Part shown: positions 571 through 32,000 of the stretch, piece after piece
How positions within the stretch are numbered: position 1 is the stretch's first letter
How the letters are laid out: each line of letters starts with the position of its first letter
Assembly: GCF_000332095.2 (NCBI RefSeq)
Contig: NZ_KI913949.1
Location: 1,379,169 to 1,411,168, forward strand
Origin: Leptolyngbya sp. PCC 6406
GTDB taxonomy: Bacteria > Cyanobacteriota > Cyanobacteriia > Phormidesmidales > Phormidesmidaceae
DNA: 32,000 nucleotides
Direction: 5' to 3'
The notes under the pieces: model-generated
Seen by the model: only the letters and a program-made list of their open reading frames with translations
Database searches by the model: none
Told to the model about the DNA's origin: nothing
Translations under genes and position numbers: made by a program

Positions 571-695
571 GGGGTATCAACTCAAAGCGGGACAAATCTC
601 GTGGGGAGGAGTTAGGAGCCAGAATCTAGGAGAGTACTGGATTCTGACTCCTGAATTCCTCGGAGCCCATATTGTCTCAGCTTAGGTTGATGCCC
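571..695 (+). repeat. dispersed ~125-130 bp repeat, family A, copy 1
   Basis: GGGGTATCAACTCAAAGCGGGACAAATCTCGTGGGGAGG...CGGAGCCCATATTGTCT...GTTGATGCCC recurs in reverse complement at 26291-26422. A ~40 bp core recurs at 12394-12434. Copies differ mainly by 7-8 bp indels. Confidence 0.85.
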
Positions 696-8482: not shown

Positions 8483-8761
8483 AGGTGTGATGAATATAAC
8501 AATTTGACTAGTCTTCTCAAAGCAGAATAGAGGAAAGTAACGTTCTCTGGTGGGTGATAAAAATTCTGTGGCAGCCTCAGCCAAGAATCTTACCCCCTAG
8601 CAAGTACGGATTCGCTGACATTCCCCTGTCAGCAGGCTTTTAGACTGTACTGACAAGTGAGGTCTAGGGTTGTAGAAAGGGGACAGATTTGGCCCTATGA
8701 GTCCCCCGTAGTGGTTAGCCCCCGTAGTTCTGATTTCCCTTGCCGCAGGCTAGTACAGAAA

Positions 8762-8789
8762 GGCAGAAGGATGAAGGCAGAAGGATGAA
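8762..8789 (+). repeat. 2 x 14-bp tandem GGCAGAAGGATGAA (two heptamers per unit)
   Basis: This is the same 14-mer that forms the array at 31879-31976. One exact inverted copy (TTCATCCTTCTGCC) lies at 9223-9236. Confidence 0.85.
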
Positions 8790-8838
8790 AAGGAGTTTCT
8801 TGTCTCACGAGGGTTCCTGCTGCATCAAATGAGGTGAG

Positions 8839-12393: not shown

Positions 12394-12434
12394 GGGTATT
12401 AACTCAAAGCGGGACAAATTTTGTGGGGAGGAGT
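12394..12434 (+). repeat. family A repeat, partial core copy
   Basis: GGGTATTAACTCAAAGCGGGACAAATTTTGTGGGGAGGAGT matches the 5' core of 571-695. Confidence 0.7.
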
Positions 12435-17347: not shown

Positions 17348-17809
17348 ATGCTGAGCCATCCCCTAGCCATGAGCGACCCCTTAACCGCCAGTGTGATTGC
17401 CTCTATTGCCTTTAAGGCTTTTTTAGAAGCGGGGGCAGGCGAAGCGGCTAAAGCCCTCACCGGGGCGGCCACCAAGGCGGCGGCAGAAAAGCTGAATGCC
17501 CTGCGGAAAACCATTTGGCAAAAGCTCCGGGGCAATCCCTCAGCGGAGACCTCGATCAAAGCCCTAGCGGAGCAGCGGGGCAGCGAAGCGGACTTGCAGA
17601 AGGTGGAAAGCTATTTGCAGGTGGCGATGGTGGAGGATCCCCAGTTTGCCGCTTCGGTGCAGCAATTGGCCCAGGAGATTACCCTGCTGCAAATTGATGA
17701 CGACAGCACCATGACCCAGGTCAACTACGGCGGCACCAATTACCAGACCAAAACCGGCCCCAATAACACCAATTTCTTTGGCGGCGAGCATCGTCATGGG
17801 GGAGCATGA
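17348..17809 (+). CDS. small helical protein with Ala/Gly-rich N-terminus and C-terminal G/N/Q/Y-rich motif (candidate Bell-like effector with amyloid-signalling motif)
   Basis: The N-terminus is MSDPLTASVIASIAFKAFLEAGAGEAAKALTGAATKAAAEKL. The C-terminus TQVNYGGTNYQTKTGPNNTNFFGGEHRHGG matches the N-terminus of the next protein at 20 of 30 positions. The TGA stop overlaps the next ATG (ATGA at 17806-17809). An alternative ATG lies at 17369. Confidence 0.7.
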   Translation: MLSHPLAMSDPLTASVIASIAFKAFLEAGAGEAAKALTGAATKAAAEKLNALRKTIWQKLRGNPSAETSIKALAEQRGSEADLQKVESYLQVAMVEDPQFAASVQQLAQEITLLQIDDDSTMTQVNYGGTNYQTKTGPNNTNFFGGEHRHGGA

Positions 17810-20436
17810 GCACCCAAACCAACCAGGGCGGTGAAAACTACCAAGTCACCACCGGCCCCCACAACACCAATTACTTCGGCGGTACCCATTACCACGGACA
17901 ACCCATGCCCTCCCCCCAGGGCACGCCCAACACCCTCAAGCCCAGCGGTGCCCTGGCCTTTGTGGGGCGAGAAGATGCCCTGGCCAACCTGGCGGCTCAA
18001 CTCCAGGGCAGCGGGCCGCTGCTGATTACGGCGCTGAAGGGGATGGGGGGCATTGGTAAATCGGAATTGGCCCTGCGCTATGCCCTGGCCAACCTGGCGG
18101 CGGGCACCTACCCGGATGGCATTCTCTGGATTGAGGGGCGGGGGGTGGACCTGGGTACCCAAATTGTGACCTTTGCCCAGGCCCAACTGGGGCTGACCCC
18201 ACCGGACAACCTAGACCTGGCGGGGCAGGTGGCCTATTGCTGGCGACACTGGCCCCCGCAGCAGGACGCACCAGGGCGGGTGCTGGTGGTGTTTGACGAT
18301 GTGACGGACTACGCCGCCCTGCGCCCCTACCTGCCCCCCACGGAGGATCGCTACCGGGTGGTGCTGACCTCGCGGCGGCGGTTTGGCCCCTCGGTGACGA
18401 CCCTGGAACTGGATGTACTGGATCTGGAGCCCGCCCTGGCCCTGCTGGGGTCGCTGGCGGGGCAGGAGCGCATCGAGGCGGTGCGGACTGAGGCAGAGGC
18501 ACTGGTGGAGTGGCTGGGGCGGCTACCCCTGGCGCTGGAACTGGTGGGGCGCTACCTGGCCAACCAGCCAGACCTGGACCTGCCGACGCTGCAACGCCGC
18601 CTGGAGGCGCAGACGGTGCGGGCAAGATCGCTGCTGAAGCCAGAGGAGGACGACAGCTACGGCGACATGACCGCCCAACTGGGGGTGGCGGCGGCCTTTG
18701 AGTTGAGTGTGGCGGAACTGACGGCGGCCCAGGGGGAACTGGCCTATGGCCTGAGTTTGTTTGGCAATGGGGCGATGCCGTGGGAACTGGTGTCGCCCTG
18801 CCTGCCGGAGGCGGATGAGGAGGCGATGGAAGCGGGGCGCAGTGCCCTGGTGAACCGCAGCCTGCTGAAGCGGGTGGAAGCGGGGCTGTATCAAATGCAC
18901 CCGCTGATTCGGGAGTTTGTGCGGCTGTGGGGGCCGGAGACGCTGGCGGCGGCGCAGGTGGAGGAGCTGAAGCGGCGCTACTGCGAGGGGATGGTGGCGG
19001 TGGCGCAGCAGATCCCCGATACCCCGACCCGTGGGCAGATTGCGGCGGTGGCGGCGGCGGTGCCCCATATTGCTGAGGCGGCAACAACATGGCAAGGTTG
19101 GCTGACTGACGAAGATGCCATCTGGCCGTTTGTGGGTCTAGGCCGCTTCTATCAGGGCCAAGGACTCTACAGCGCAGCGGAACCCTGGCGTACCCGCTGT
19201 TTGTCTTTCGCCAGAGAAAAATTCGGCGACGAGCATCCCGATGTGGCCTCCAGTTTCAATAATCTGGCGGGACTTTACCGTTCTCAGGGGCGCTACAGCG
19301 AGGCGGAACCCCTGTATCAACAAGCCCTGGCCTTGAGGCAAAAATTGCTCGGCGACGAGCATCCCGATGTGGCCTCCAGTTTCAATAATCTGGCGGCACT
19401 TTACGACTCTCAGGGGCGCTACAGCGAAGCGGAACCGCTCTATCAACAAGCCCTGGCCTTGATGCAAAAATTGCTCGGCGACGAGCATCCCGATGTGGCC
19501 ACCAGTTTCAATAATCTGGCGTACCTTTACCGTTCTCAGGGGCGCTACAGCGAAGCGGAACCCCTGTATCAACAAGCCCTGGCCTTGAGGCAAAAATTGC
19601 TCGGCGACGAGCATCCCGATGTGGCCTCCAGTTTCAATAATCTGGCGTACCTTTACGACTCTCAGGGGCGCTACAGCGAAGCGGAACCGCTGTATCAACA
19701 AGCCCTGGCCTTGAGGCAAAAATTGCTCGGCGACGAGCATCCCGATGTCGCCTCCAGTTTCAATAATCTGGCGGCACTTTACGACTCTCAGGGGCGCTAC
19801 AGCGAGGCGGAACCGCTCTATCAACAAGCCCTGGCCTTGAGGCAAAAATTGCTCGGCGACGAGCATCCCGATGTGGCCACCAGTTTCAATAATCTGGCGT
19901 ACCTTTACGAATCTCAGGGGCGCTACAGCGAAGCGGAACCGCTCTTGCAACAAGCCCTGGCCTTGATGCAAAAATTGCTCGGCGACGAGCATCCCGATGT
20001 CGCCTCCAGTTTCAATAATCTGGCGGCACTTTACGACTCTCAGGGGCGCTACAGCGAAGCGGAACCGCTCTTGCAACAAGCCCTGGCCTTGAGGCAAAAA
20101 TTGCTCGGCGACGAGCATCCCGATGTGGCCTCCAGTTTCAATAATCTGGCGTACCTTTACGAATCTCAGGGGCGCTACACCGAGGCGGAACCCCTATATC
20201 AACAAGCCCTGGCCTTGAGGCAAAAATTGCTCGGTGACGAGCATCCCGATGTGGCCGCCAGTTTCAATAATCTGGGCATGTTGCGGTTTAGCCAAGGGCG
20301 CTACAGCGAGGCGGCAACGTATTTGGAGCGGGCGCTGGTGTTAATTGAACGGCTGCTGGGGCCGGACCATCCCAACACTCAGACCATGCGGGCAAATCTT
20401 GATTTTGTGCGGCAAAAGGTTGCCCAGTCAGCGTAG
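17806..20436 (+). CDS. NB-ARC (STAND P-loop NTPase) protein with C-terminal TPR array and N-terminal G/N/Q/Y-rich motif (bacterial NLR-like)
   Basis: Walker A is GMGGIGKSELA (from 18040) and Walker B is VLVVFDDV. VVLTSRR and the GLPLA-type motif GRLPLALELVG are also present. About 10 TPR units of 42 aa follow (EHPDVASSFNNLAxLYxSQGRYSEAEPLYQQALALRQKLLGD). The N-terminus is TQTNQGGENYQVTTGPHNTNYFGGTHYHGQ. Confidence 0.9.
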   Translation: MSTQTNQGGENYQVTTGPHNTNYFGGTHYHGQPMPSPQGTPNTLKPSGALAFVGREDALANLAAQLQGSGPLLITALKGMGGIGKSELALRYALANLAAGTYPDGILWIEGRGVDLGTQIVTFAQAQLGLTPPDNLDLAGQVAYCWRHWPPQQDAPGRVLVVFDDVTDYAALRPYLPPTEDRYRVVLTSRRRFGPSVTTLELDVLDLEPALALLGSLAGQERIEAVRTEAEALVEWLGRLPLALELVGRYLANQPDLDLPTLQRRLEAQTVRARSLLKPEEDDSYGDMTAQLGVAAAFELSVAELTAAQGELAYGLSLFGNGAMPWELVSPCLPEADEEAMEAGRSALVNRSLLKRVEAGLYQMHPLIREFVRLWGPETLAAAQVEELKRRYCEGMVAVAQQIPDTPTRGQIAAVAAAVPHIAEAATTWQGWLTDEDAIWPFVGLGRFYQGQGLYSAAEPWRTRCLSFAREKFGDEHPDVASSFNNLAGLYRSQGRYSEAEPLYQQALALRQKLLGDEHPDVASSFNNLAALYDSQGRYSEAEPLYQQALALMQKLLGDEHPDVATSFNNLAYLYRSQGRYSEAEPLYQQALALRQKLLGDEHPDVASSFNNLAYLYDSQGRYSEAEPLYQQALALRQKLLGDEHPDVASSFNNLAALYDSQGRYSEAEPLYQQALALRQKLLGDEHPDVATSFNNLAYLYESQGRYSEAEPLLQQALALMQKLLGDEHPDVASSFNNLAALYDSQGRYSEAEPLLQQALALRQKLLGDEHPDVASSFNNLAYLYESQGRYTEAEPLYQQALALRQKLLGDEHPDVAASFNNLGMLRFSQGRYSEAATYLERALVLIERLLGPDHPNTQTMRANLDFVRQKVAQSA
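19231..20238 (+). repeat. 8 x 126-bp near-identical in-frame tandem repeats (TPR units) inside the NB-ARC/TPR gene
   Basis: Each unit begins GAGCATCCCGATGT. The start positions 19231 + n*126 were verified through 20239. A ninth, diverged unit and a partial cap follow. Confidence 0.9.
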
Positions 20437-21136: not shown

Positions 21137-22047
21137 GAGGGTGTCTGAGAAGTAGAAAGGCCCTCAAAAACGCTACTCTATCAGTCAGTAAGTACACTTG
21201 ATAGGGTTTTTGAGGGCAATGCGATTATCCTACCCCACCGATTTGACTGATGAACAATGGGATATTCTCTCTCTCTTGATTCCTCCGGCGAAGCCTGGTG
21301 GACGACCTCGGAGCACGGATATGCGAGAAGTGGTCAATGCGATTCTGTACGTTCTGGACAATAGCACCAAGTGGCGGTGCTTACCCCATGATTTCCCGAA
21401 GGCCAAAACGGTCTACCATTATTTTCGCCAATGGCGCAATGATGGGGTGTGGGAACACATCAATCACCGATTGCGGGAGTTGGTGCGGTTAACGGAGGGG
21501 CGCGAAGCGTCTCCCAGTGCAGCGGTGATGGATAGTCAGTCGGTGAACAGCGATGTCTACATTTCGGAGTCGGTCGGCTTCGATGCAAACAAAAAGGTCA
21601 AAGGTCGGAAGCGAAACGTGGTGGTCGACACAATGGGTTTAGTGCTGATGGTTGTGGTTACCGCAGCGAGTCTCCCTGAGCGGGATGGCGCACGAAAGGT
21701 GCTAGAAAAAATGCATCAGGTTAGTCAGTGGTTCACTCGCCTGTGTGTCATTTGGGTTGATGGGGGATATAGCGGTAACGATTTCATGAAAGAGATCATG
21801 GACCGCTTTCGATGGGTGATTGAGGTGATCAAGCGCCCCGACTGTGCGCAGGGATTTGTGCTGTTACCCAAGCGGTGGGTGGTGGAGCGCACATTTGGCT
21901 GGTTTACTTTTTGCCGCCGCTTGAGTAAAGACTATGAGCGCCTACCAGAGACCGCTGAGGCATGGATTTATGTGGCCAATATTCGAGTCATGTTAAGGCG
22001 ACTAACGTGCTAATTCATACCTACATTCCAGCTTTTCAGACACCCTC
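21137..22047 (+). mobile_element. IS5-family insertion sequence (IS1031-like group), 911 bp, intact
   Basis: Terminal inverted repeats are GAGGGTGTCTGAGAAG (left) and CTTTTCAGACACCCTC (right). A 3-bp direct duplication TTA lies at 21134-21136 and 22048-22050. A single transposase ORF fills the element. Confidence 0.85.
21219..22013 (+). CDS. IS5 family transposase (DUF4096 N-terminal region plus DDE domain)
   Basis: MRLSYPTDLTDEQWDILSLLIPPAKPGGRPRSTDMREVVNAILYVL...WRCLPHDFP...TVYHYFRQWRNDGVW is the typical IS5/IS4-like N-terminus. DDE-region motifs include MDSQSV, VDTMGL and WVDGGYSG. ATG 21219 was chosen over the listed TTG 21198. Confidence 0.9.
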   Translation: MRLSYPTDLTDEQWDILSLLIPPAKPGGRPRSTDMREVVNAILYVLDNSTKWRCLPHDFPKAKTVYHYFRQWRNDGVWEHINHRLRELVRLTEGREASPSAAVMDSQSVNSDVYISESVGFDANKKVKGRKRNVVVDTMGLVLMVVVTAASLPERDGARKVLEKMHQVSQWFTRLCVIWVDGGYSGNDFMKEIMDRFRWVIEVIKRPDCAQGFVLLPKRWVVERTFGWFTFCRRLSKDYERLPETAEAWIYVANIRVMLRRLTC

Positions 22048-26230: not shown

Positions 26231-26290
26231 TTCCCCGAATTGCCATCCAGTTGAGCTGTACCTCATCCATTAGGGAACCGCTATATTTTG

Positions 26291-26422
26291 GGCATCAACG
26301 TAAGCCCAGACAATATGGGCTCCGAGGAATTCAGGAATTCAGGAGTCAGTACTCTCCTAGATTCTGGCTCCTAACGCCTAACGCCTCCCCACGAGATTTG
26401 TCCCGCTTTGAGTTGATACCCC
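26291..26422 (-). repeat. family A dispersed repeat, copy 3 (reverse orientation)
   Basis: The reverse complement is collinear with 571-695 (GGGGTATCAACTCAAAGCGGGACAAATCTCGTGGGGAGG...GTTGATGCCC). It ends 3 nt from the stop of the pentapeptide gene. Confidence 0.85.
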
Positions 26423-26424
26423 TC

Positions 26425-27066
26425 CTACAGAGCGAGCCGCGTTCCTAGCAAACAGGCTCCTGCCAAGGTGATGCCCTTCACGTTGGCTCCATCCACCTCC
26501 GCACAAAGCAAGTTGGCCCCACTCAGGGAAGCCCCCGCCAAATTCGCCTCTCGTAAATCCGCCTCCTCCAGGTTGGCCTCGTTGAGCACCGCCCCTTGGA
26601 GGTCGGCGTGGGCCAAAATCGCTCCCTGTAAGTTGGCTCCACTCAGATTGCTTCCCCGCAAATCGGCCCCCCGCAGGTCCACCCCCTTGAGGTTCACCCC
26701 CATTAGGTTGGCCCCGTTCAAAAAAGCGCCCGCCAAACTCACCCCAGTCAATGTCGCCCCCATGAAGTTGGCCCCCCGCAGGTTCGCCCCCCGCAAATCG
26801 GCCCCGGTGAGATCCGCCTGCATCAAGTTAGCCCCCCACAGGTTCGCCCGCAGGTCGGTGCCCTGGAGCTGTGCCCCCATCAGGTTCGCCCCCTCTAACT
26901 TGGCCCGCGCCAGATTGCTCTGGGCGAGATTAGCCCCCACCAAGGTGGCCCCATTCAGCACAATACCGCTGAGATCGGCATTGGACAGATCTTCATCCTC
27001 TAGGTCAGCCCCCGGCAGATGGCGCTGGGCACCACTATGAATGGCTTGAATGTCCTGGGTAGTCAT
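26425..27066 (-). CDS. pentapeptide repeat-containing protein
   Basis: Nearly the whole 213 aa is A(D/N)LxG-type pentads (ANLMGAQLQGTDLRANLWGANLMQADLTGADLRGANLRGANFMG...). Confidence 0.9.
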   Translation of the reverse strand: MTTQDIQAIHSGAQRHLPGADLEDEDLSNADLSGIVLNGATLVGANLAQSNLARAKLEGANLMGAQLQGTDLRANLWGANLMQADLTGADLRGANLRGANFMGATLTGVSLAGAFLNGANLMGVNLKGVDLRGADLRGSNLSGANLQGAILAHADLQGAVLNEANLEEADLREANLAGASLSGANLLCAEVDGANVKGITLAGACLLGTRLAL

Positions 27067-27385
27067 AGGGGTAGGAGGTCGGTCATCAATAGGGCTGCAT
27101 CCGGTATGGTAATCCTCTTACCTCTGAAGAAACAACGTTTTTAGGATGGACTGGGGGGCTATTGCGGGGGAGGCGGAGCCTCCGGGGAGGTGCCGTGGCA
27201 GCGCCACGGCACCAGAATATAGGGGAGCTAAACCCGCCCCTACGGGATCTTGTGGCGGTGGGGCCGGGGTCAGGGATAGGGCTTGAGGGGGAGACGGGGA
27301 TACCCGAAAAAATGCAAAAAATTCGGGCGCGAAGCGCGGAAGAGGTCTGCCTTGAGCGAAGTCGAACATAAACAGCCCAAAATGC

Positions 27386-27414
27386 AAAAAAATTTCTTCG
27401 CGCTCTGCGCGAAG
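27386..27414 (-). terminator. candidate intrinsic terminator of the caspase operon
   Basis: The minus strand reads CTTCGCGC-AGA-GCGCGAAG followed by AAATTTTTTT. It begins about 50 nt after the stop at 27467. A weaker related copy lies at about 27305-27340. Confidence 0.5.
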
Positions 27415-27466
27415 GGGAAGGGTAAAGAAAAAAGATAATAGTGCAAAAGTACTATAGGGCAGAGGG

Positions 27467-29596
27467 CTACGGAAGAGGCCACGAGGAGACACAGACAACC
27501 CGAAAACCGATGATGTAGTTCTGGTTATCGCGCGTGCCCCAGTTGCGATTGGCCGAGCGGCAGTACCTGGGATCGTCGTACCACGAACCGCCCCGCAGCA
27601 GCCGATTTTCATTCTCGTTAGAGGATAACCAAGCACTGCCATCGGTGGGAGCACCTTCGTAGCTGCCGTGCCAGGGGTCTTGGCACCATTCCCACACGTT
27701 GCCGTGCATGTCATAGAGACCAAAGGCGTTGGGGGGAAAGCTACCCACGTCTAGGGTCTTTTGGCGATAGGTGCCTTTGGGGCCATTGCCATAGGGGTAG
27801 TTGCCATCGTAGTTGGCTAAATCAGGGGTGATGGTGTCGCCGCAGTGAAAGGGGGTTTCGGTGCCAGCCCGACAGGCGTATTCCCATTCGGCTTCACTGG
27901 GCAGGCGGTAGTCGTGGCCGCTGTGGCGGGTGAGACGATCGCAGAATTCCACTGCGTCATACCAAGACACGCGCTCTACCGGGCAATTGTTCCCTTTGAC
28001 ATGGGCAGGATCGGGCTTGAGATCGGTCTTGACCTTAGGCAATCCGGCTACCGCTCGCCACTGGGCTTGGGTGATGGCATATTTCCCCAGCCAGAAGCCG
28101 GGAACCTGAACCCGATGGCGGGGCTTCTCATCGCCATAACCCTCCCCATCTGGGGAACCCATCCAGAACTCCCCTGGAGGGATCTTGACCAGATCTAGGG
28201 GCACTTCCCCTGGCAGGGTCTCTCGGCGATATTCAGCCCGATGTTGTTCTCGGCTCGTTAGGACTCTGGGCGATCCGAGCCCCAATAATTTCCGCTCAAC
28301 TCCCGTGATCTTCAGCACACTGAACTCAAATGTAGGGAAGGTCTCAGGGGCAGTGGAGGGTGTTGTGGGGATGGTGGGCGGTGCCCACCCTACGGGGGCA
28401 GCGTTGGTGTTGGGGGACGATCCCTCCGGGATGGGGGGCGATGCTGCCCACCCTACGGGGGCGGGGGGCGGCGCTGCGGGGGTGGGTTTGAGGTTGAGGC
28501 GTTGGGTGAGGGCTTGTTCGATTTTGGTGGCATCGGCTGACCCCAGACCTAGGTTGAGGCGGATTTCCGCCAGCCGCCGCTGGTTACGCTCTGTGGGTAG
28601 GTAGCCATTTTTAGCTGCCATTTGAAAGTACTTGGCGTACTCACGGCGCTGACTGGCCCGTTTTTGATAGGGGGCTTGCACTTGGGCCTCGATGGCGGCG
28701 GCGGCTTCGCGGGTTAAGCCTAGCCGTTGGCGTCGCGTTTCTAAGATGCCGCGATCCAGATCGTCCTCAATGGTGCCATTGAAGTCGAGGTCTAGCTCTG
28801 CATCCAGTTCCTGAAAGATGTCATCCACCGCCTTGCGATATTCCTGCTCGGCATCCAGTTTGGGTGCCCGCACCAGGGGCAGATCAAATCCGGTATCCTC
28901 AGCCAGGATTTTGGGGAGATAGCCGCCTTTGCGCTCGATTTCGAAGCGGCGCTCGGCGTGGTTGTGGAGATCGCGCACCAAGATCCAATCGCCATGGCCG
29001 GGGTAGGCGGCTCCTTCCATCCCTTCAACTAGGTAGCGAGTATAGAGGGAGAGGCCGTCTTTTTCTTGCAGGGCGATGTTGGTGGCGCTGGAGGAGGCTA
29101 AAATCACCCGCCCCTTGGCCTTTAGTTCGCCAAAGTCGATGGGGGTGTCTCCCTTTTTGAGTAGATCTGCGATCGCGCCACTGTAGCAACAGTCCAAAAT
29201 CACCACAATCCGTTGGCTCCGACTCAGCTCCATTCGCCGCTGGAGAAAGGTAGCGGAAACGGCGCTGGATTCCACCAAGCGCCCTTGGGGCTTTTGGCTG
29301 CTGCGGGTGCAGAAATGCAGTTGGGGAGACAAAATGCCCCCACTGCCCAAGTCGCCATGGCCAGAGAAATACAACAGCAGCAAATCCTCTGACTGTCCCC
29401 GTTGAAAAAATTGCTCCAGGTGGGTGCGGAAGGTCTCACTGTCGCAATTCTCCAGAGAGGTGACATCGAAGGCACCCCCCTCTGGGTCCGACAGCACACG
29501 GGTCATGGCCTGCACGTCCAGCACGCTCCCCGGCAGGGGCTCGAAGCCCTCGCCGTAGTCACTCACCCCCACCAGCAATGCCCGCCGCTCACCCAT
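27467..29596 (-). CDS. orthocaspase (peptidase C14 p20-like domain) fused to a C-terminal FGE-sulfatase (SUMF1-like) domain
   Basis: The N-terminus RALLVGVSDYGEGFEPLPGSVLDVQAM...LLLLYFSGHGDLG carries the catalytic His. VVILDCCYSGA carries the catalytic Cys. The C-terminus has PPGEFWMGSP...EKPRHRVQVPGFWLGKYAITQAQW...VERVSWYDAVEFCDRL...YRLPSEAEWEYACRAGT...GLYDMHGNVWEWCQD...LLRGGSWYD...RSANRN, the standard FGE-sulfatase motifs. Confidence 0.9.
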   Translation of the reverse strand: MGERRALLVGVSDYGEGFEPLPGSVLDVQAMTRVLSDPEGGAFDVTSLENCDSETFRTHLEQFFQRGQSEDLLLLYFSGHGDLGSGGILSPQLHFCTRSSQKPQGRLVESSAVSATFLQRRMELSRSQRIVVILDCCYSGAIADLLKKGDTPIDFGELKAKGRVILASSSATNIALQEKDGLSLYTRYLVEGMEGAAYPGHGDWILVRDLHNHAERRFEIERKGGYLPKILAEDTGFDLPLVRAPKLDAEQEYRKAVDDIFQELDAELDLDFNGTIEDDLDRGILETRRQRLGLTREAAAAIEAQVQAPYQKRASQRREYAKYFQMAAKNGYLPTERNQRRLAEIRLNLGLGSADATKIEQALTQRLNLKPTPAAPPPAPVGWAASPPIPEGSSPNTNAAPVGWAPPTIPTTPSTAPETFPTFEFSVLKITGVERKLLGLGSPRVLTSREQHRAEYRRETLPGEVPLDLVKIPPGEFWMGSPDGEGYGDEKPRHRVQVPGFWLGKYAITQAQWRAVAGLPKVKTDLKPDPAHVKGNNCPVERVSWYDAVEFCDRLTRHSGHDYRLPSEAEWEYACRAGTETPFHCGDTITPDLANYDGNYPYGNGPKGTYRQKTLDVGSFPPNAFGLYDMHGNVWEWCQDPWHGSYEGAPTDGSAWLSSNENENRLLRGGSWYDDPRYCRSANRNWGTRDNQNYIIGFRVVCVSSWPLP

Positions 29597-29984
29597 CCCG
29601 TTTTTGCTTCGTCGCCTCGACCGCAGCTAAAAAAGTCTGGAAATCTGCCATGGGGTCGCGATCGCCCCGCACCTTGAATTCCAGCTTGGTGCCTTCGTGT
29701 TCCAGCTTAATTTCACTGGTACTGCCTGCTACCAGGTTCTGCAATCCCCCCACCAGCAGCTTCAGCAGGGCCAAATCAACCTTGAGATCAAACCAGTCGG
29801 GTCGGGTCCAGCCTTTTTCCACCAGTCGAGGGTCAGGCTCCGGCCCCGGCCCTGCAACGGGGACAACTTCAGCCCCTTGACGGGCCAAGGTCATCGCCAG
29901 GGTGGTCAACATCTGGTGCAAGTCTTCATCCGTTGCTTGGGGATCCGTCACGGAGATTCGCAGCGCTAGGGTCGTGTCATCCAT
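29589..29984 (-). CDS. small acidic protein translationally coupled to the orthocaspase (possible EACC1-like effector-associated component)
   Basis: This 131-aa ORF has a TGA stop overlapping the caspase ATG (ATGGGTGA, 8-nt overlap at 29589-29596). Its layout is LRISVTDPQATDEDLHQMLTTLAMTLARQG, a Pro-rich linker, then DLKVDLALLKLLVGGLQNLVAGSTSEIKLEHEGTKLEFKV. Family assignment is tentative. Confidence 0.6.
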   Translation of the reverse strand: MDDTTLALRISVTDPQATDEDLHQMLTTLAMTLARQGAEVVPVAGPGPEPDPRLVEKGWTRPDWFDLKVDLALLKLLVGGLQNLVAGSTSEIKLEHEGTKLEFKVRGDRDPMADFQTFLAAVEATKQKRDG

Positions 29985-30333
29985 TATTCAGTCCCCAAAG
30001 CAATGTCTTAGTTTAGACCAGCCCAATTGAGAAACTATTCGGAAATCCAGTCCGATTAAATGACCACACAAATCTATTCCATCGGTAGGGGCGTTAGCGT
30101 AGCCATGCCGAAGGCTTTAAGGCTTTTCGCCCTTTCCAGAATTGTGCCCCATTAACCGGACATCATCGGAAATAGCCAGCTTTCGTCCAGGGTGCTATCA
30201 CGCCCTCAAAATCCTCCTATCCTAGAGTCACCTTGACTTTCCCAGTCTCACTGTCATCGCTCCCTGATCGCTTCTCGTGCGGGGGGCACAATTCTGGGCA
30301 GTCTGGGAATAGAGTTCTAGAGTGCTTTACCCC

Positions 30334-31884
30334 ATGAGCCCGACTGATGTCACTACCGCAGAGTTGCTACTAGAGCGCTATGCCCAAGGAGAACGGGACT
30401 TTTCCCAGGTCTCTCTGAATGAATGCAACTTGGCTGGAGCCCAGATTCCCCATATCGTGCTGCGCCAAGCCAACCTCAATATTGTCAACCTCAGTACCGC
30501 TAACCTCAGCTTCAGTGACCTTCAGCAGGCGTCTCTGAATGTGAGTCGTTTCAGCGGGGCCAACCTCAGCCAAGCCTGTCTGCGTCAGGCCCAACTCAAT
30601 GTGGCCAACCTGATTCGGGCGGTGCTGGTGGGGGCCGACCTGTCAGAGGCATCCTTGATTCGGGCAGAACTGCTGCGGGCAGATCTCAGTAACGCCACCC
30701 TCAACCAAGCCAACCTCAGCGAGGCAGATTTGCGGGAGGCCCGTCTGCGCTGGGCGCGCCTGAGCGGGGCCAACCTGAGCCAGAGTGATCTGCGTAAAAG
30801 TAATTTTCTCGGGGCCAACCTAGAGGGGGCACAACTCTACGCCGCCCAGATGGAGGACACGGTGCTGAGTGGAGCGGTCTTGCAGCGGGCAGAACTGCGC
30901 CATGCCACCCTGATGGGGGCGGATCTGAGTGGGGCCAACCTGCGGGGGGCTAACCTGCGGTGGGCCGACCTGAGTGGGGCCAATCTCCAGGAGGCAGACC
31001 TGACCGATGCCAAGCTCAGCGGGGCCACTCTGGTGGGGGCAGACCTGAGTGGAGCCACCCTGGTCAATACCATCCTGGTCCATACGGACTTGAGCCGGAC
31101 CAGACTCCAGCGGGTCTATTGCGTAGACTCCGATCTGTCGGGGGCGACCCTGAATGGTGCTTTCTTGGCCGGGGCGGTGTGCTACGACCTCGTGACCGCT
31201 GAAACCACCTGTGATTGGGTGGATCTGAGTGTGAATGGGGATGGCTCTAAGGTGCAGCGCTTCACCGATGCCGGGGCTATCCATGCCTTCTTTAATCGCC
31301 GACCGCCCCAGGTGCAGGTGGTGGTGGATGTGGCTCTAACCCAGGGAGCCCACGCTAGCTTGGCCCAGGCGTACCATCAGCTCGCGGCGGTGCTGGATTG
31401 GTTTGTCATGCCGCCGGATATCGAGATTAGCCATCGTCGCACCGTGCTGACCTTTAAGGCCGATACCGAGACGACGCTAATGGCGATCGCATTTCTATCC
31501 ACTTGGCCCTTTAAGGATCGCAAGGCGGTGCGGACCGCTCTCTTGGGCTTTGTCACGGCGGAGAAGACTGCTGCTGTCCCCAATTTGCCCAACCAGGCTA
31601 TCCTCGAATGCCTGGAGGCTACCGTATCCGAAGTGGATACCTTGGAACTGTGTCCCCTGCGGGAGGACTTAGATCAATCTTCCTTTTTTGCCGCCCCCCT
31701 GCAAGTGAAGCTCACCAACACCACGGGGCAGGCTCTAGAGCTTTACCACAACCCTCGTTTTGGTGTGCGCAATTTTCCCCTGGCCCAGGGGTTGTTTCCG
31801 GTCCAACCCCGGCAAGATCCCTTTCCCCATTTGGAAGATTATCAGTCCTTTGTGGCAGGGTTTCGGGATGGGACATCAGGATGA
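30334..31884 (+). CDS. pentapeptide repeat protein (~290 aa of repeats) with ~230-aa C-terminal domain of unknown function
   Basis: Long runs of A(N/D)LSx pentads are present (ANLSFSDLQQASLNVSRFSGANLSQACLRQAQLNVANL...). A non-repetitive C-terminal half follows (VQVVVDVALTQGAHASLAQAYHQLAAVLDWFVMPPDIEISHRRTVLTFKAD...). ATG 30334 was chosen; the listed GTG is at 30322. Confidence 0.8.
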   Translation: MSPTDVTTAELLLERYAQGERDFSQVSLNECNLAGAQIPHIVLRQANLNIVNLSTANLSFSDLQQASLNVSRFSGANLSQACLRQAQLNVANLIRAVLVGADLSEASLIRAELLRADLSNATLNQANLSEADLREARLRWARLSGANLSQSDLRKSNFLGANLEGAQLYAAQMEDTVLSGAVLQRAELRHATLMGADLSGANLRGANLRWADLSGANLQEADLTDAKLSGATLVGADLSGATLVNTILVHTDLSRTRLQRVYCVDSDLSGATLNGAFLAGAVCYDLVTAETTCDWVDLSVNGDGSKVQRFTDAGAIHAFFNRRPPQVQVVVDVALTQGAHASLAQAYHQLAAVLDWFVMPPDIEISHRRTVLTFKADTETTLMAIAFLSTWPFKDRKAVRTALLGFVTAEKTAAVPNLPNQAILECLEATVSEVDTLELCPLREDLDQSSFFAAPLQVKLTNTTGQALELYHNPRFGVRNFPLAQGLFPVQPRQDPFPHLEDYQSFVAGFRDGTSG

Positions 31885-31976
31885 AGGTAGAAGGCAGAAG
31901 GCAGAAGGATGAAGGCAGAAGGATGAAGGCAGAAGGATGAAGGCAGAAGGATGAAGGCAGAAGGATGAAGGCAGAA
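31879..31976 (+). repeat. tandem array of 14-bp unit GGATGAAGGCAGAA (alternating heptamers), about 7 units
   Basis: Five perfect units run from 31907 to 31976. They are preceded by GGATGAAGGTAGAA and two GGCAGAA half units. The first unit supplies the TGA stop (31882-31884) of the preceding gene. Confidence 0.9.
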
Positions 31977-32000
31977 GGGGGATTTCAAGACACACAAGGG

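Follow-up and report, generated by a model that had tools for sequence, protein, structure and literature searches.

A divergent EACC1-caspase gene pair of Leptolyngbya sp. PCC 6406 and its candidate role as a death module

Why would a cyanobacterial caspase with a C-terminal domain of the formylglycine-generating enzyme (FGE)-sulfatase type be encoded in overlap with a small acidic protein, and what would the two proteins do together? We addressed this question for a two-gene operon on the minus strand of a 32,000-nucleotide stretch of the Leptolyngbya sp. PCC 6406 genome (contig NZ_KI913949.1, positions 1,379,169 to 1,411,168), referred to below as the window and numbered from its first letter. 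A first-pass annotation made from the letters alone had compared the small protein to the effector-associated constant component (EACC1) proteins of prokaryotic conflict systems, and had proposed that it acts as a regulator, inhibitor or adaptor of the protease. Profile-profile comparison and synteny indicated that the small protein is a divergent member of the EACC1 family. By analogy with a homologous pair, we consider it rather likely that the locus forms an EACC1-caspase two-gene death or defence module, in which the window EACC1 is probably both the substrate of the caspase and the effector, releasing a membrane-damaging fragment. The locus represents a divergent new case of a system that was already described and has recently been characterised, and it leaves the known working picture of that system unchanged.

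The open reading frames (ORFs) and signals that define the operon are the following:

29589-29984, minus strand: EACC1-like ORF of 131 amino acids, with its stop codon at 29589-29591 (ORF list)
27467-29596, minus strand: caspase-FGE ORF of 709 amino acids (ORF list, Pfam and NCBIfam)
29589-29596, minus strand: 8-nucleotide overlap ATGGGTGA, the start codon of the caspase falling within the final codons and stop codon of the small gene (direct reading)
27386-27414, minus strand: terminator-like hairpin and T-run, with an 8-bp stem (6 G-C pairs) and a 3-nucleotide loop, about 50 nucleotides past the stop codon

The ORF pair, the stop/start overlap and the hairpin with its T-run were all present where the first-pass annotation had placed them. 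In the overlap, ...CGG GAT GGG TGA of the small gene is read over ATG GGT GAG of the caspase gene. The hairpin CTTCGCGC-AGA-GCGCGAAG spans 27414-27396 and is followed by AAATTTTTTT down to 27386. The overlap is unchanged in the orthologous locus L084, and an overlap of 8 nucleotides was also found at nine other loci (L001, L002, L003, L017, L031, L034, L035, L037 and L039). The tight coupling described earlier recurs in most homologous loci, where an upstream ORF of approximately 120-145 residues overlaps the caspase start or ends at most 13 nucleotides before it. A promoter scan of the operon upstream region detected no sigma-70 promoter site. A hypothetical protein of Leptolyngbya sp. PCC 6406 matches the small ORF with 100% identity; the contigs found with this protein are at most 2.2 kb long and all end inside the caspase gene, and a search for contigs encoding the exact 709-residue product returned no record. 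The motif TTTTTTGCATTTT occurs twice 3' of the caspase gene (window 27300-27400, minus strand), at approximately 27380-27392 in the terminator tail and at approximately 27309-27321.

The small ORF is a real, constrained gene. Comparison with its L084 orthologue, which is 89% identical at the protein level, gave a ratio of nonsynonymous to synonymous substitution rates (dN/dS) of 0.21; codon-level constraint, a point on which the original proposal could have failed, is therefore present. Constraint was strongest in the C-terminal half (proportion of nonsynonymous differences, pN, 0.024; proportion of synonymous differences, pS, 0.19) and weaker in the half encoding the N-terminal lobe (N-lobe; pN 0.105, pS 0.30). 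The encoded protein is acidic, with an isoelectric point of 4.76 as a whole and of about 4.1 for the N-lobe.

Searches with the small protein alone recovered few sequences: a word-indexed homology search returned only 3 near-identical proteins, and HMMER, run exhaustively against 1.84 billion representative proteins, gave 10 at E <= 1e-3. The direct hidden Markov model (HMM) match to EACC1 that had been suggested as a check failed; the window ORF scanned as a member of a family alignment (A2) still gave no Pfam EACC1 match. The upstream ORFs of L001-L005 are 31-42% identical to the window ORF in alignment, their caspases being 59-77% identical, and they showed no match to Pfam PF19953 either, including those of the closest relatives, L002 and L005. 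Because direct HMM scans and single-protein searches were uninformative, the family placement was made by synteny and profile-profile comparison. Alignment of profiles with hhalign linked the window clade (A3) to the other cyanobacterial upstream ORFs (A5) with 99% probability (E 4e-18), these in turn to Pfam-positive EACC1 sequences (A4) with 98.8% probability (E 1e-16), and the window clade directly to the Pfam-positive sequences with 95% probability (E 3.9e-8, 114 columns). All three alignments span the full length. In agreement with these results, a profile of the window clade and its cyanobacterial relatives (A6) retrieved 450 proteins from a collection of 5.8 billion sequences, many of them already annotated as PF19953. 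The earlier comparison with EACC1 was thus borne out by the profile alignments together with conserved synteny. A whole cyanobacterial clade, and many cyanobacterial members besides, escape the curated EACC1 HMMs, and surveys of protease-effector modules consequently undercount them.

The synteny was established by scanning one genome per species with the caspase domain only, which gave 80 loci from cyanobacteria, actinobacteria, Chloroflexota and Methanosarcina. Conservation of the small-gene/caspase adjacency had been named beforehand as a check: an EACC1-like ORF was found at most 800 nucleotides upstream at 64 of the 80 caspase loci using the A2 family HMM, whose training set comprised 46 of these ORFs together with the window ORF, only the remaining matches being independent. 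PF19953 matched 18 of 47 upstream ORFs, with a best E-value of 2e-22 and several above the gathering score. The C-terminal domain of the caspase protein changed from locus to locus. It is of the FGE-sulfatase type in the window, L001, L005, L006, L027, L033 and the Methanosarcina locus L058; a GUN4 domain in L002, L003, L010 and L017 (caspase ORFs starting at about 3001); a WD40 or beta-propeller domain in L035 and L064; a periplasmic-binding domain in L040; and a dynamin-like domain in L009. Across loci, sequence comparison suggests a constant chassis of caspase and helical region carrying a variable C-terminal sensor, a pattern by which Kaur et al. 2020 define the system. In the closest EACC1-linked caspases it is the porphyrin-binding GUN4 domain that replaces FGE, which would make an intriguing sensor for a death protease.

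The 709-residue protein of the window contains the following elements:

28916-29587, minus strand: Peptidase_C14 (caspase) domain, residues 4-227 (Pfam E 1e-19, 71 bits against a cutoff of 21)
29357-29359, minus strand: H80, the catalytic His of YFSGHGD
29192-29194, minus strand: D135, invariant, two residues before the catalytic Cys
29186-29191, minus strand: C136 and C137 of ILDCCYSG
28487-28906, minus strand: conserved helical region, residues 231-370 (about 140 residues), with two LGL(T/G)xxxAxxIE-type repeats
28328-28486, minus strand: flexible linker rich in Pro, Thr and Ala, residues 371-423, with a duplicated APVGWA motif (composition)
27494-28195, minus strand: FGE-sulfatase-type domain of C-type-lectin fold, residues 468-701 (Pfam E 1e-56, positions 4-254 of a 255-position profile)
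27494-27595, minus strand: hypervariable patch resembling a variable repeat, residues 668-701, RGGSWYDDPRYCRSANRNWGTRDNQNYIIGFRVV, with the scaffold RGGSW..PR.CRSA.R...GFRVV

The caspase His/Cys dyad noted at first pass is intact: 78 aligned homologous caspase domains all keep H80, D135, C136, C137 and the string VVILDCCY, and the position of D27 is Asp in 65 of them and Asn in 13. D135 and D27 are, we presume, the counterparts of the TbMCA2 S1 residues Asp211 and Asp95. Such an acidic S1 pocket selects Arg or Lys in metacaspases and orthocaspases. The best caspase-specific model was NCBIfam NF047832, 'caspase, EACC1-associated type' (131.1 bits, E 3.8e-38, model positions 1-208 of 211). With the caspase domain as query, the PDB yielded no sequence match at E <= 0.01. 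The domain shares with orthocaspases and metacaspases such as MaOC1 of Microcystis, TbMCA2 and Yca1 the Peptidase_C14 fold, the His/Cys dyad and, in its D-C-C motif and an upstream Asp, a predicted metacaspase-type acidic S1 pocket; unlike these, it appears from its sequence to belong to an EACC1-linked subfamily provided with a dedicated substrate gene.

The stretch between the two Pfam domains measures about 240 residues rather than the roughly 330 given earlier, and consists of the helical region, the Pro/Thr-rich linker and a short lead-in. The helical region gave no Pfam match. It is 50-64% identical in L001-L006 and approximately 26-32% identical in other cyanobacterial EACC1-linked caspases with different C-terminal domains, and as judged from this conservation it is part of the constant chassis. 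The 709-residue protein has no predicted transmembrane segment, its maximum Kyte-Doolittle 19-mer (1.29) lying in a caspase core strand, and is therefore probably cytoplasmic.

The complete FGE-sulfatase-type domain reported at first pass was recovered by Pfam at near full length. Sequence matches in the PDB were to PvdO (5hha, 8e-37), human FGE (about 1e-22) and TvpA (2y3c, 3e-22), a variable protein of a diversity-generating retroelement (DGR). In FGE, Cys336 and Cys341 (human numbering) form the copper-binding catalytic pair. Alignment of the window domain to human FGE placed D674 at Cys336 and C679 at Cys341, followed by a 3-residue deletion. Regarding this pair, which the first-pass annotation had singled out for checking, the Cys341 equivalent is thus kept and the Cys336 equivalent is lost; since the Cys336 position is Asp674, the copper-binding pair is broken at the level of sequence. 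Because of this loss, the likeness to PvdO and TvpA and the hypervariable patch of variable-repeat type, the domain makes better sense as a binding or ligand-sensor module than as an enzyme. The same suggestion had been made at first pass, and the lost cysteine and the nearest structures, PvdO and TvpA among them, uphold it.

An AlphaFold2 model of the small protein, built with 66 family sequences, reached moderate confidence (predicted local distance difference test score, pLDDT, 72.8; predicted template modelling score, pTM, 0.64). The model shows an N-lobe and a C-terminal lobe (C-lobe) that share one sheet, with a disordered linker between them, and agrees with the two-lobed alpha/beta layout and Pro-rich linker proposed earlier:

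29856-29984, minus strand: N-lobe, residues 1-43 (strand 5-13, helix 19-35, strand 39-43; AlphaFold2)
29796-29855, minus strand: Pro-rich low-confidence linker, residues 44-63, AGPGPEPDPRLVEKGWTRPD, with the lowest pLDDT and the candidate cleavage sites
29592-29795, minus strand: C-lobe, residues 64-131 (strand 64-70, helix 71-84, strands 91-96 and 99-104, helix 111-130; AlphaFold2)
29814-29816, minus strand: codon of K57, the favoured candidate cleavage residue, with D51 as the alternative

By analogy, the N-lobe would be the autoinhibitory part and the C-lobe is the candidate toxic, pore-forming fragment. The C-lobe helix 71-84, LALLKLLVGGLQNL, carries a Gly pair, and the most hydrophobic 19-mer of the protein covers residues 69-87 (Kyte-Doolittle mean 1.43). 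A Foldseek search of the model against the PDB returned only weak ferredoxin-like matches (E >= 0.019, TM score about 0.4) and was silent on function. In the linker, every one of 66 aligned family members has K or R at the position of K57, and 61 of the 66 have Asp at that of E49. Because the basic linker residue is invariant and the caspase carries the Asp residues of an acidic S1 pocket, cleavage after K57 is favoured, with D51 as the alternative; according to computed masses, a cut after K57 would give fragments of 6.1 and 8.3 kDa, and one at D51 fragments of 5.4 and 9.0 kDa.

The EACC1 two-gene system (System 4) consists of a constant 5' EACC1 gene and a 3' gene whose product joins a constant N-terminal caspase to one of about 50 alternative C-terminal domains (Kaur, Burroughs, Iyer & Aravind 2020, PMC7159879). 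Those authors proposed EACC1 as a membrane sensor and described as a trait a central hydrophobic 'TM' (transmembrane) helix with a patch of small, often Gly, residues. In the pair that has been studied experimentally, a Ktedonobacter racemifer caspase fused to Avs12 cuts EACC1, yielding pieces of 5.7 and 7.1 kDa. Of these, the C-terminal one alone is toxic; liposomes leak with EACC1 that has been cleaved and not otherwise; and toxicity disappears when EACC1 is deleted or the catalytic Cys is mutated (Evans et al. 2025, bioRxiv 10.1101/2025.11.14.688446). In the arrangement described by Evans et al. 2025, an autoinhibitory N-terminal part of EACC1 completes a sheet together with strands of the C-terminal part. 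The window operon resembles this system in several respects. A 5' small gene (about 120-140 residues in the system) is coupled to a 3' gene for an N-terminal caspase with a variable C-terminal domain, profile-profile comparison shows the small protein to be homologous, its two-lobed fold with a linker matches the description of Evans et al., and the caspase is nearest to the NCBIfam 'EACC1-associated type'. It differs in that the small protein is unseen by curated HMMs, its clade is tiny and the hallmark segment is polar. The sensor is an FGE/C-type-lectin domain in the window and an Avs-type STAND NTPase in Ktedonobacter, and the host is a cyanobacterium, where Kaur et al. had stressed actinobacteria.

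We infer the trigger, the cleavage site and pore formation from this likeness, in the following scheme. Before cleavage, the acidic N-lobe would pack against the C-lobe and mask it, and the helical region with the flexible Pro-rich linker would tether the protease to the lectin domain. A ligand, probably a component of a phage or other invader (an endogenous ligand being possible), would bind the lectin domain and activate the protease, probably via oligomerisation. The protease would then make a single cut in the Pro-rich linker of EACC1, and the freed C-terminal fragment of about 8 kDa would oligomerise and permeabilise the membrane, leading to cell death or arrest. The scheme parallels bacterial gasdermin-protease and Pepco/Trypco-protease pairs, in which a sensor-coupled protease strips an autoinhibitory part and a small neighbour attacks the membrane. 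Pepco-associated proteases are also fused to FGE domains. Unlike those pairs, the window protein shows no sequence or fold relationship to them, the best PDB fold match being the ferredoxin-like one. If the scheme holds, two 'hypothetical/FGE-family' genes of Leptolyngbya sp. PCC 6406 could be annotated as an EACC1-caspase death module, and the puzzling cyanobacterial 'metacaspase-FGE-sulfatase' architecture would receive a concrete reading as lectin sensor, protease and dedicated toxin substrate.

Several observations weigh against a protease-licensed death module at this locus. The EACC1 mechanism has its sole experimental support in a single preprint on one distant homologue (Evans et al. 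2025). The 131-residue ORF gave no match in Pfam, NCBIfam or PADLOC, with PF19953 and NCBIfam silent even at E <= 1, and the NF047832 score of the caspase falls just short of the curated cutoff of 140. Classic, mostly actinobacterial EACC1 proteins have a hydrophobic central segment with a small-residue patch, e.g. TMLVALASGGALSALIAAL, with maximum Kyte-Doolittle values of 1.5-2.0; in the window clade the aligned hallmark columns are polar (GWTRPDWFDLKVD and GWTRPDWFDLKV; SSSILDVKINL, or TRPDWFDLKVD in the case of the window protein), and the median of the maximum Kyte-Doolittle value is 0.96 as against 1.66 in Pfam-positive members. Because this segment is polar, pore formation in the window clade may differ or be lost. 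Some 10 residues downstream, the window protein and its two closest relatives, and no others, have a moderately hydrophobic helix that contains a GG pair, LALLKLLVGGLQNLVAG (Kyte-Doolittle 1.43). The cut in Ktedonobacter EACC1 was placed at Asp49 in an AlphaFold3 model (Evans et al. 2025), which conflicts with the preference for K57, the window protein having E49 and D51 in the corresponding region; the family invariants predict a cut after a basic residue, unlike the Asp site modelled in the sole experimental study. In the neighbourhood, Pfam scans of the window ORFs revealed no phage-defence genes, and a Pfam scan of 20 window ORFs found no reverse-transcriptase domain, which adds to the missing template repeat described below.

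Other readings of the two genes have to be weighed against the same evidence. The proposal made at first pass, that the small protein regulates, inhibits or adapts the protease (taken here as a stoichiometric role that includes that of an antitoxin), would suit the translational coupling and the acidic N-lobe, and physical interaction is likely, given an AlphaFold complex of EACC1 with the caspase dimer that reached an interface predicted template modelling score (ipTM) of 0.77 (Evans et al. 2025). That study nevertheless showed EACC1 to be a cleaved substrate and death effector: in the homologue, removing it ends toxicity and its C-terminal fragment is toxic alone. In the window gene the strongest purifying selection falls on the C-lobe, as would fit an effector surface, and we regard a regulatory role as quite unlikely. 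The model of Kaur et al. 2020, which is the original description of the system, reverses the roles. EACC1 would be a membrane-associated sensor and the caspase would free the C-terminal, FGE-like effector autoproteolytically, for which the long Pro-rich linker before the FGE domain could be a processing site. It does not account for the cleavage of EACC1 itself in the homologous pair, where the C-terminal fragment is the toxin; the window 'TM' columns are polar and AlphaFold2 folds the small protein as a soluble alpha/beta domain; and an FGE-like domain that has lost a catalytic cysteine and resembles binding modules would make a poor effector. This arrangement is very unlikely for the window.

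The module could also serve a purpose other than defence, the lectin domain sensing an endogenous or environmental ligand, such as a cell-wall or extracellular polysaccharide glycan or a stress signal, and triggering regulated death or remodelling in a filamentous cyanobacterium. Cyanobacterial orthocaspases have been linked in reviews to stress and developmental programmed cell death, the GUN4 swap in the closest homologues hints at metabolic rather than viral ligands, the neighbouring genes are of housekeeping type, and EACC1 fusions to DnaK-like domains have led to suggested stress roles (Evans et al. 2025). Lectin surfaces of DGR type and an association with multicellular bacteria are, on the other hand, usually read as conflict-related, and one homologue is actively DGR-diversified; we hold a non-defence role to be rather unlikely. 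A bifunctional enzyme, whose FGE domain and caspase would share a substrate, the former making formylglycine on it (or carrying out PvdO/EgtB-like chemistry), was speculated upon by Asplund-Samuelsson et al. 2012 and would draw on the full-length Pfam FGE-sulfatase match and on an NCBIfam PvdO match at E 2e-45. The latter scored 155 bits against a cutoff of 500, though, and all NCBIfam enzyme equivalogs were far below their cutoffs; with Asp at Cys336, a 3-residue deletion after the Cys341 equivalent and a C-terminal active-site region that coincides with the hypervariable patch, such an enzyme is hardly credible. Active FGE chemistry was rejected on account of the Cys336 substitution, the deletion and the low enzyme-model scores.

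The C-terminal patch of the window protein has a scaffold typical of DGR variable repeats, and its domain matches TvpA of Treponema denticola. The architecture of N-terminal orthocaspase plus C-terminal C-type-lectin/FGE domain is that of cyanobacterial DGR variable proteins and their non-diversified paralogues (Vallota-Eastman et al. 2020, PMC7517822), RGGSW...CRSA.R...GFRVV is common to the window protein and DGR proteins of this kind, and an association of EACC1-linked proteases with DGRs has been reported (Evans et al. 2025). The scaffold is kept across homologues, and the varying positions are the AAC/AAT (Asn) codons of a template repeat found in L006, on contig CALIGI010000069.1 of an uncultured Pseudanabaenaceae metagenome-assembled genome:

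L006:5589-5708: template repeat, about 400 nucleotides downstream of the caspase-FGE gene, translating to RGGSWINNPRNCRSANRNNQSPGNRNNNVG
about L006:5096-5205: variable repeat

The two repeats are identical at 87 of 93 non-A positions and at 11 of 27 A positions, and on this sequence evidence they are a genuine, textbook template-repeat/variable-repeat pair; the contig ends before any reverse-transcriptase gene. Unlike such systems, the 32-kb window revealed neither a template repeat nor a reverse transcriptase. An A-masked scan of both strands for a template repeat returned the self-match only, the next candidate having 44 non-A mismatches, and a repeat search of the window found no repeat touching 27467-27800. 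Comparison of the window patch with the L006 template repeat, matching at 14 of 27 A positions and 61 of 93 non-A positions, was uninformative. The cyanobacterial DGR tables of Vallota-Eastman et al. 2020 do not list PCC 6406; these authors found orthocaspase domains both in DGR variable proteins and in non-diversified paralogues. The window copy is most simply read as a fixed, non-diversified paralogue of DGR-diversified sensors, and this is more likely than a remote target. An unlikely alternative is that the window EACC1 clade, of about a dozen sequences, is a functionally distinct branch with a soluble or differently inserting effector, combined with a lectin surface that a DGR at another site of the PCC 6406 genome diversifies in trans. 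If true, a somatically hypermutating sensor would be wired directly to a protease-licensed death effector.

The operon has a G+C content like that of the rest of the window, and other genes of the window are listed below:

26425-27066, minus strand: pentapeptide-repeat gene flanking the operon
30322-31884, plus strand: pentapeptide-repeat gene flanking the operon, inverted relative to the other
21198-22013, plus strand: IS4/5-family DDE transposase, between the NB-ARC/TPR gene and a YqiJ-like/flotillin pair
17348-17809, plus strand: ORF of 153 amino acids, ending ...STMTQVNYGGTNYQTKTGPNNTNFFGGEHRHGGA
17806-20436, plus strand: NB-ARC/TPR gene, beginning MSTQTNQGGENYQVTTGPHNTNYFGGTHYHG and overlapping the 153-residue ORF by 4 nucleotides

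The divergent upstream pentapeptide-repeat gene also adjoins the orthologous small gene in L084. The first-pass annotation had associated the operon with the NLR-like pair formed by the last two genes. This pair lies about 7 kb away, beyond the transposase, the YqiJ-like/flotillin pair and a pentapeptide-repeat gene; given the distance, the intervening genes and the unremarkable composition, a functional tie was rejected.

The NLR-like pair and the repeats of the window yielded some minor observations. A G/N/Q/T-rich motif of about 27 residues is common to the C-terminal end of the 153-residue protein and the N-terminal end of the NB-ARC/TPR protein, and judged by sequence the two genes resemble an effector/NLR pair of bacterial amyloid signalling (BASS type). 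The TPR repeats of the latter are encoded by nine tandem 126-nucleotide units (19097-20404), mostly 92-96% identical, an unusually high identity that points to recent homogenisation or expansion of the repeats. A dispersed repeat of about 125 nucleotides, resembling a miniature inverted-repeat transposable element, is present in copies 88-94% identical at 571-695 (plus strand), 12394-12434 (plus strand, partial) and 26290-26422 (minus strand), two of them inverted and 25.6 kb apart. Tandem 14-nucleotide repeats (AGGATGAAGGCAGA) occur at two distant sites of the window, 31857-31992 and 8740-8798.

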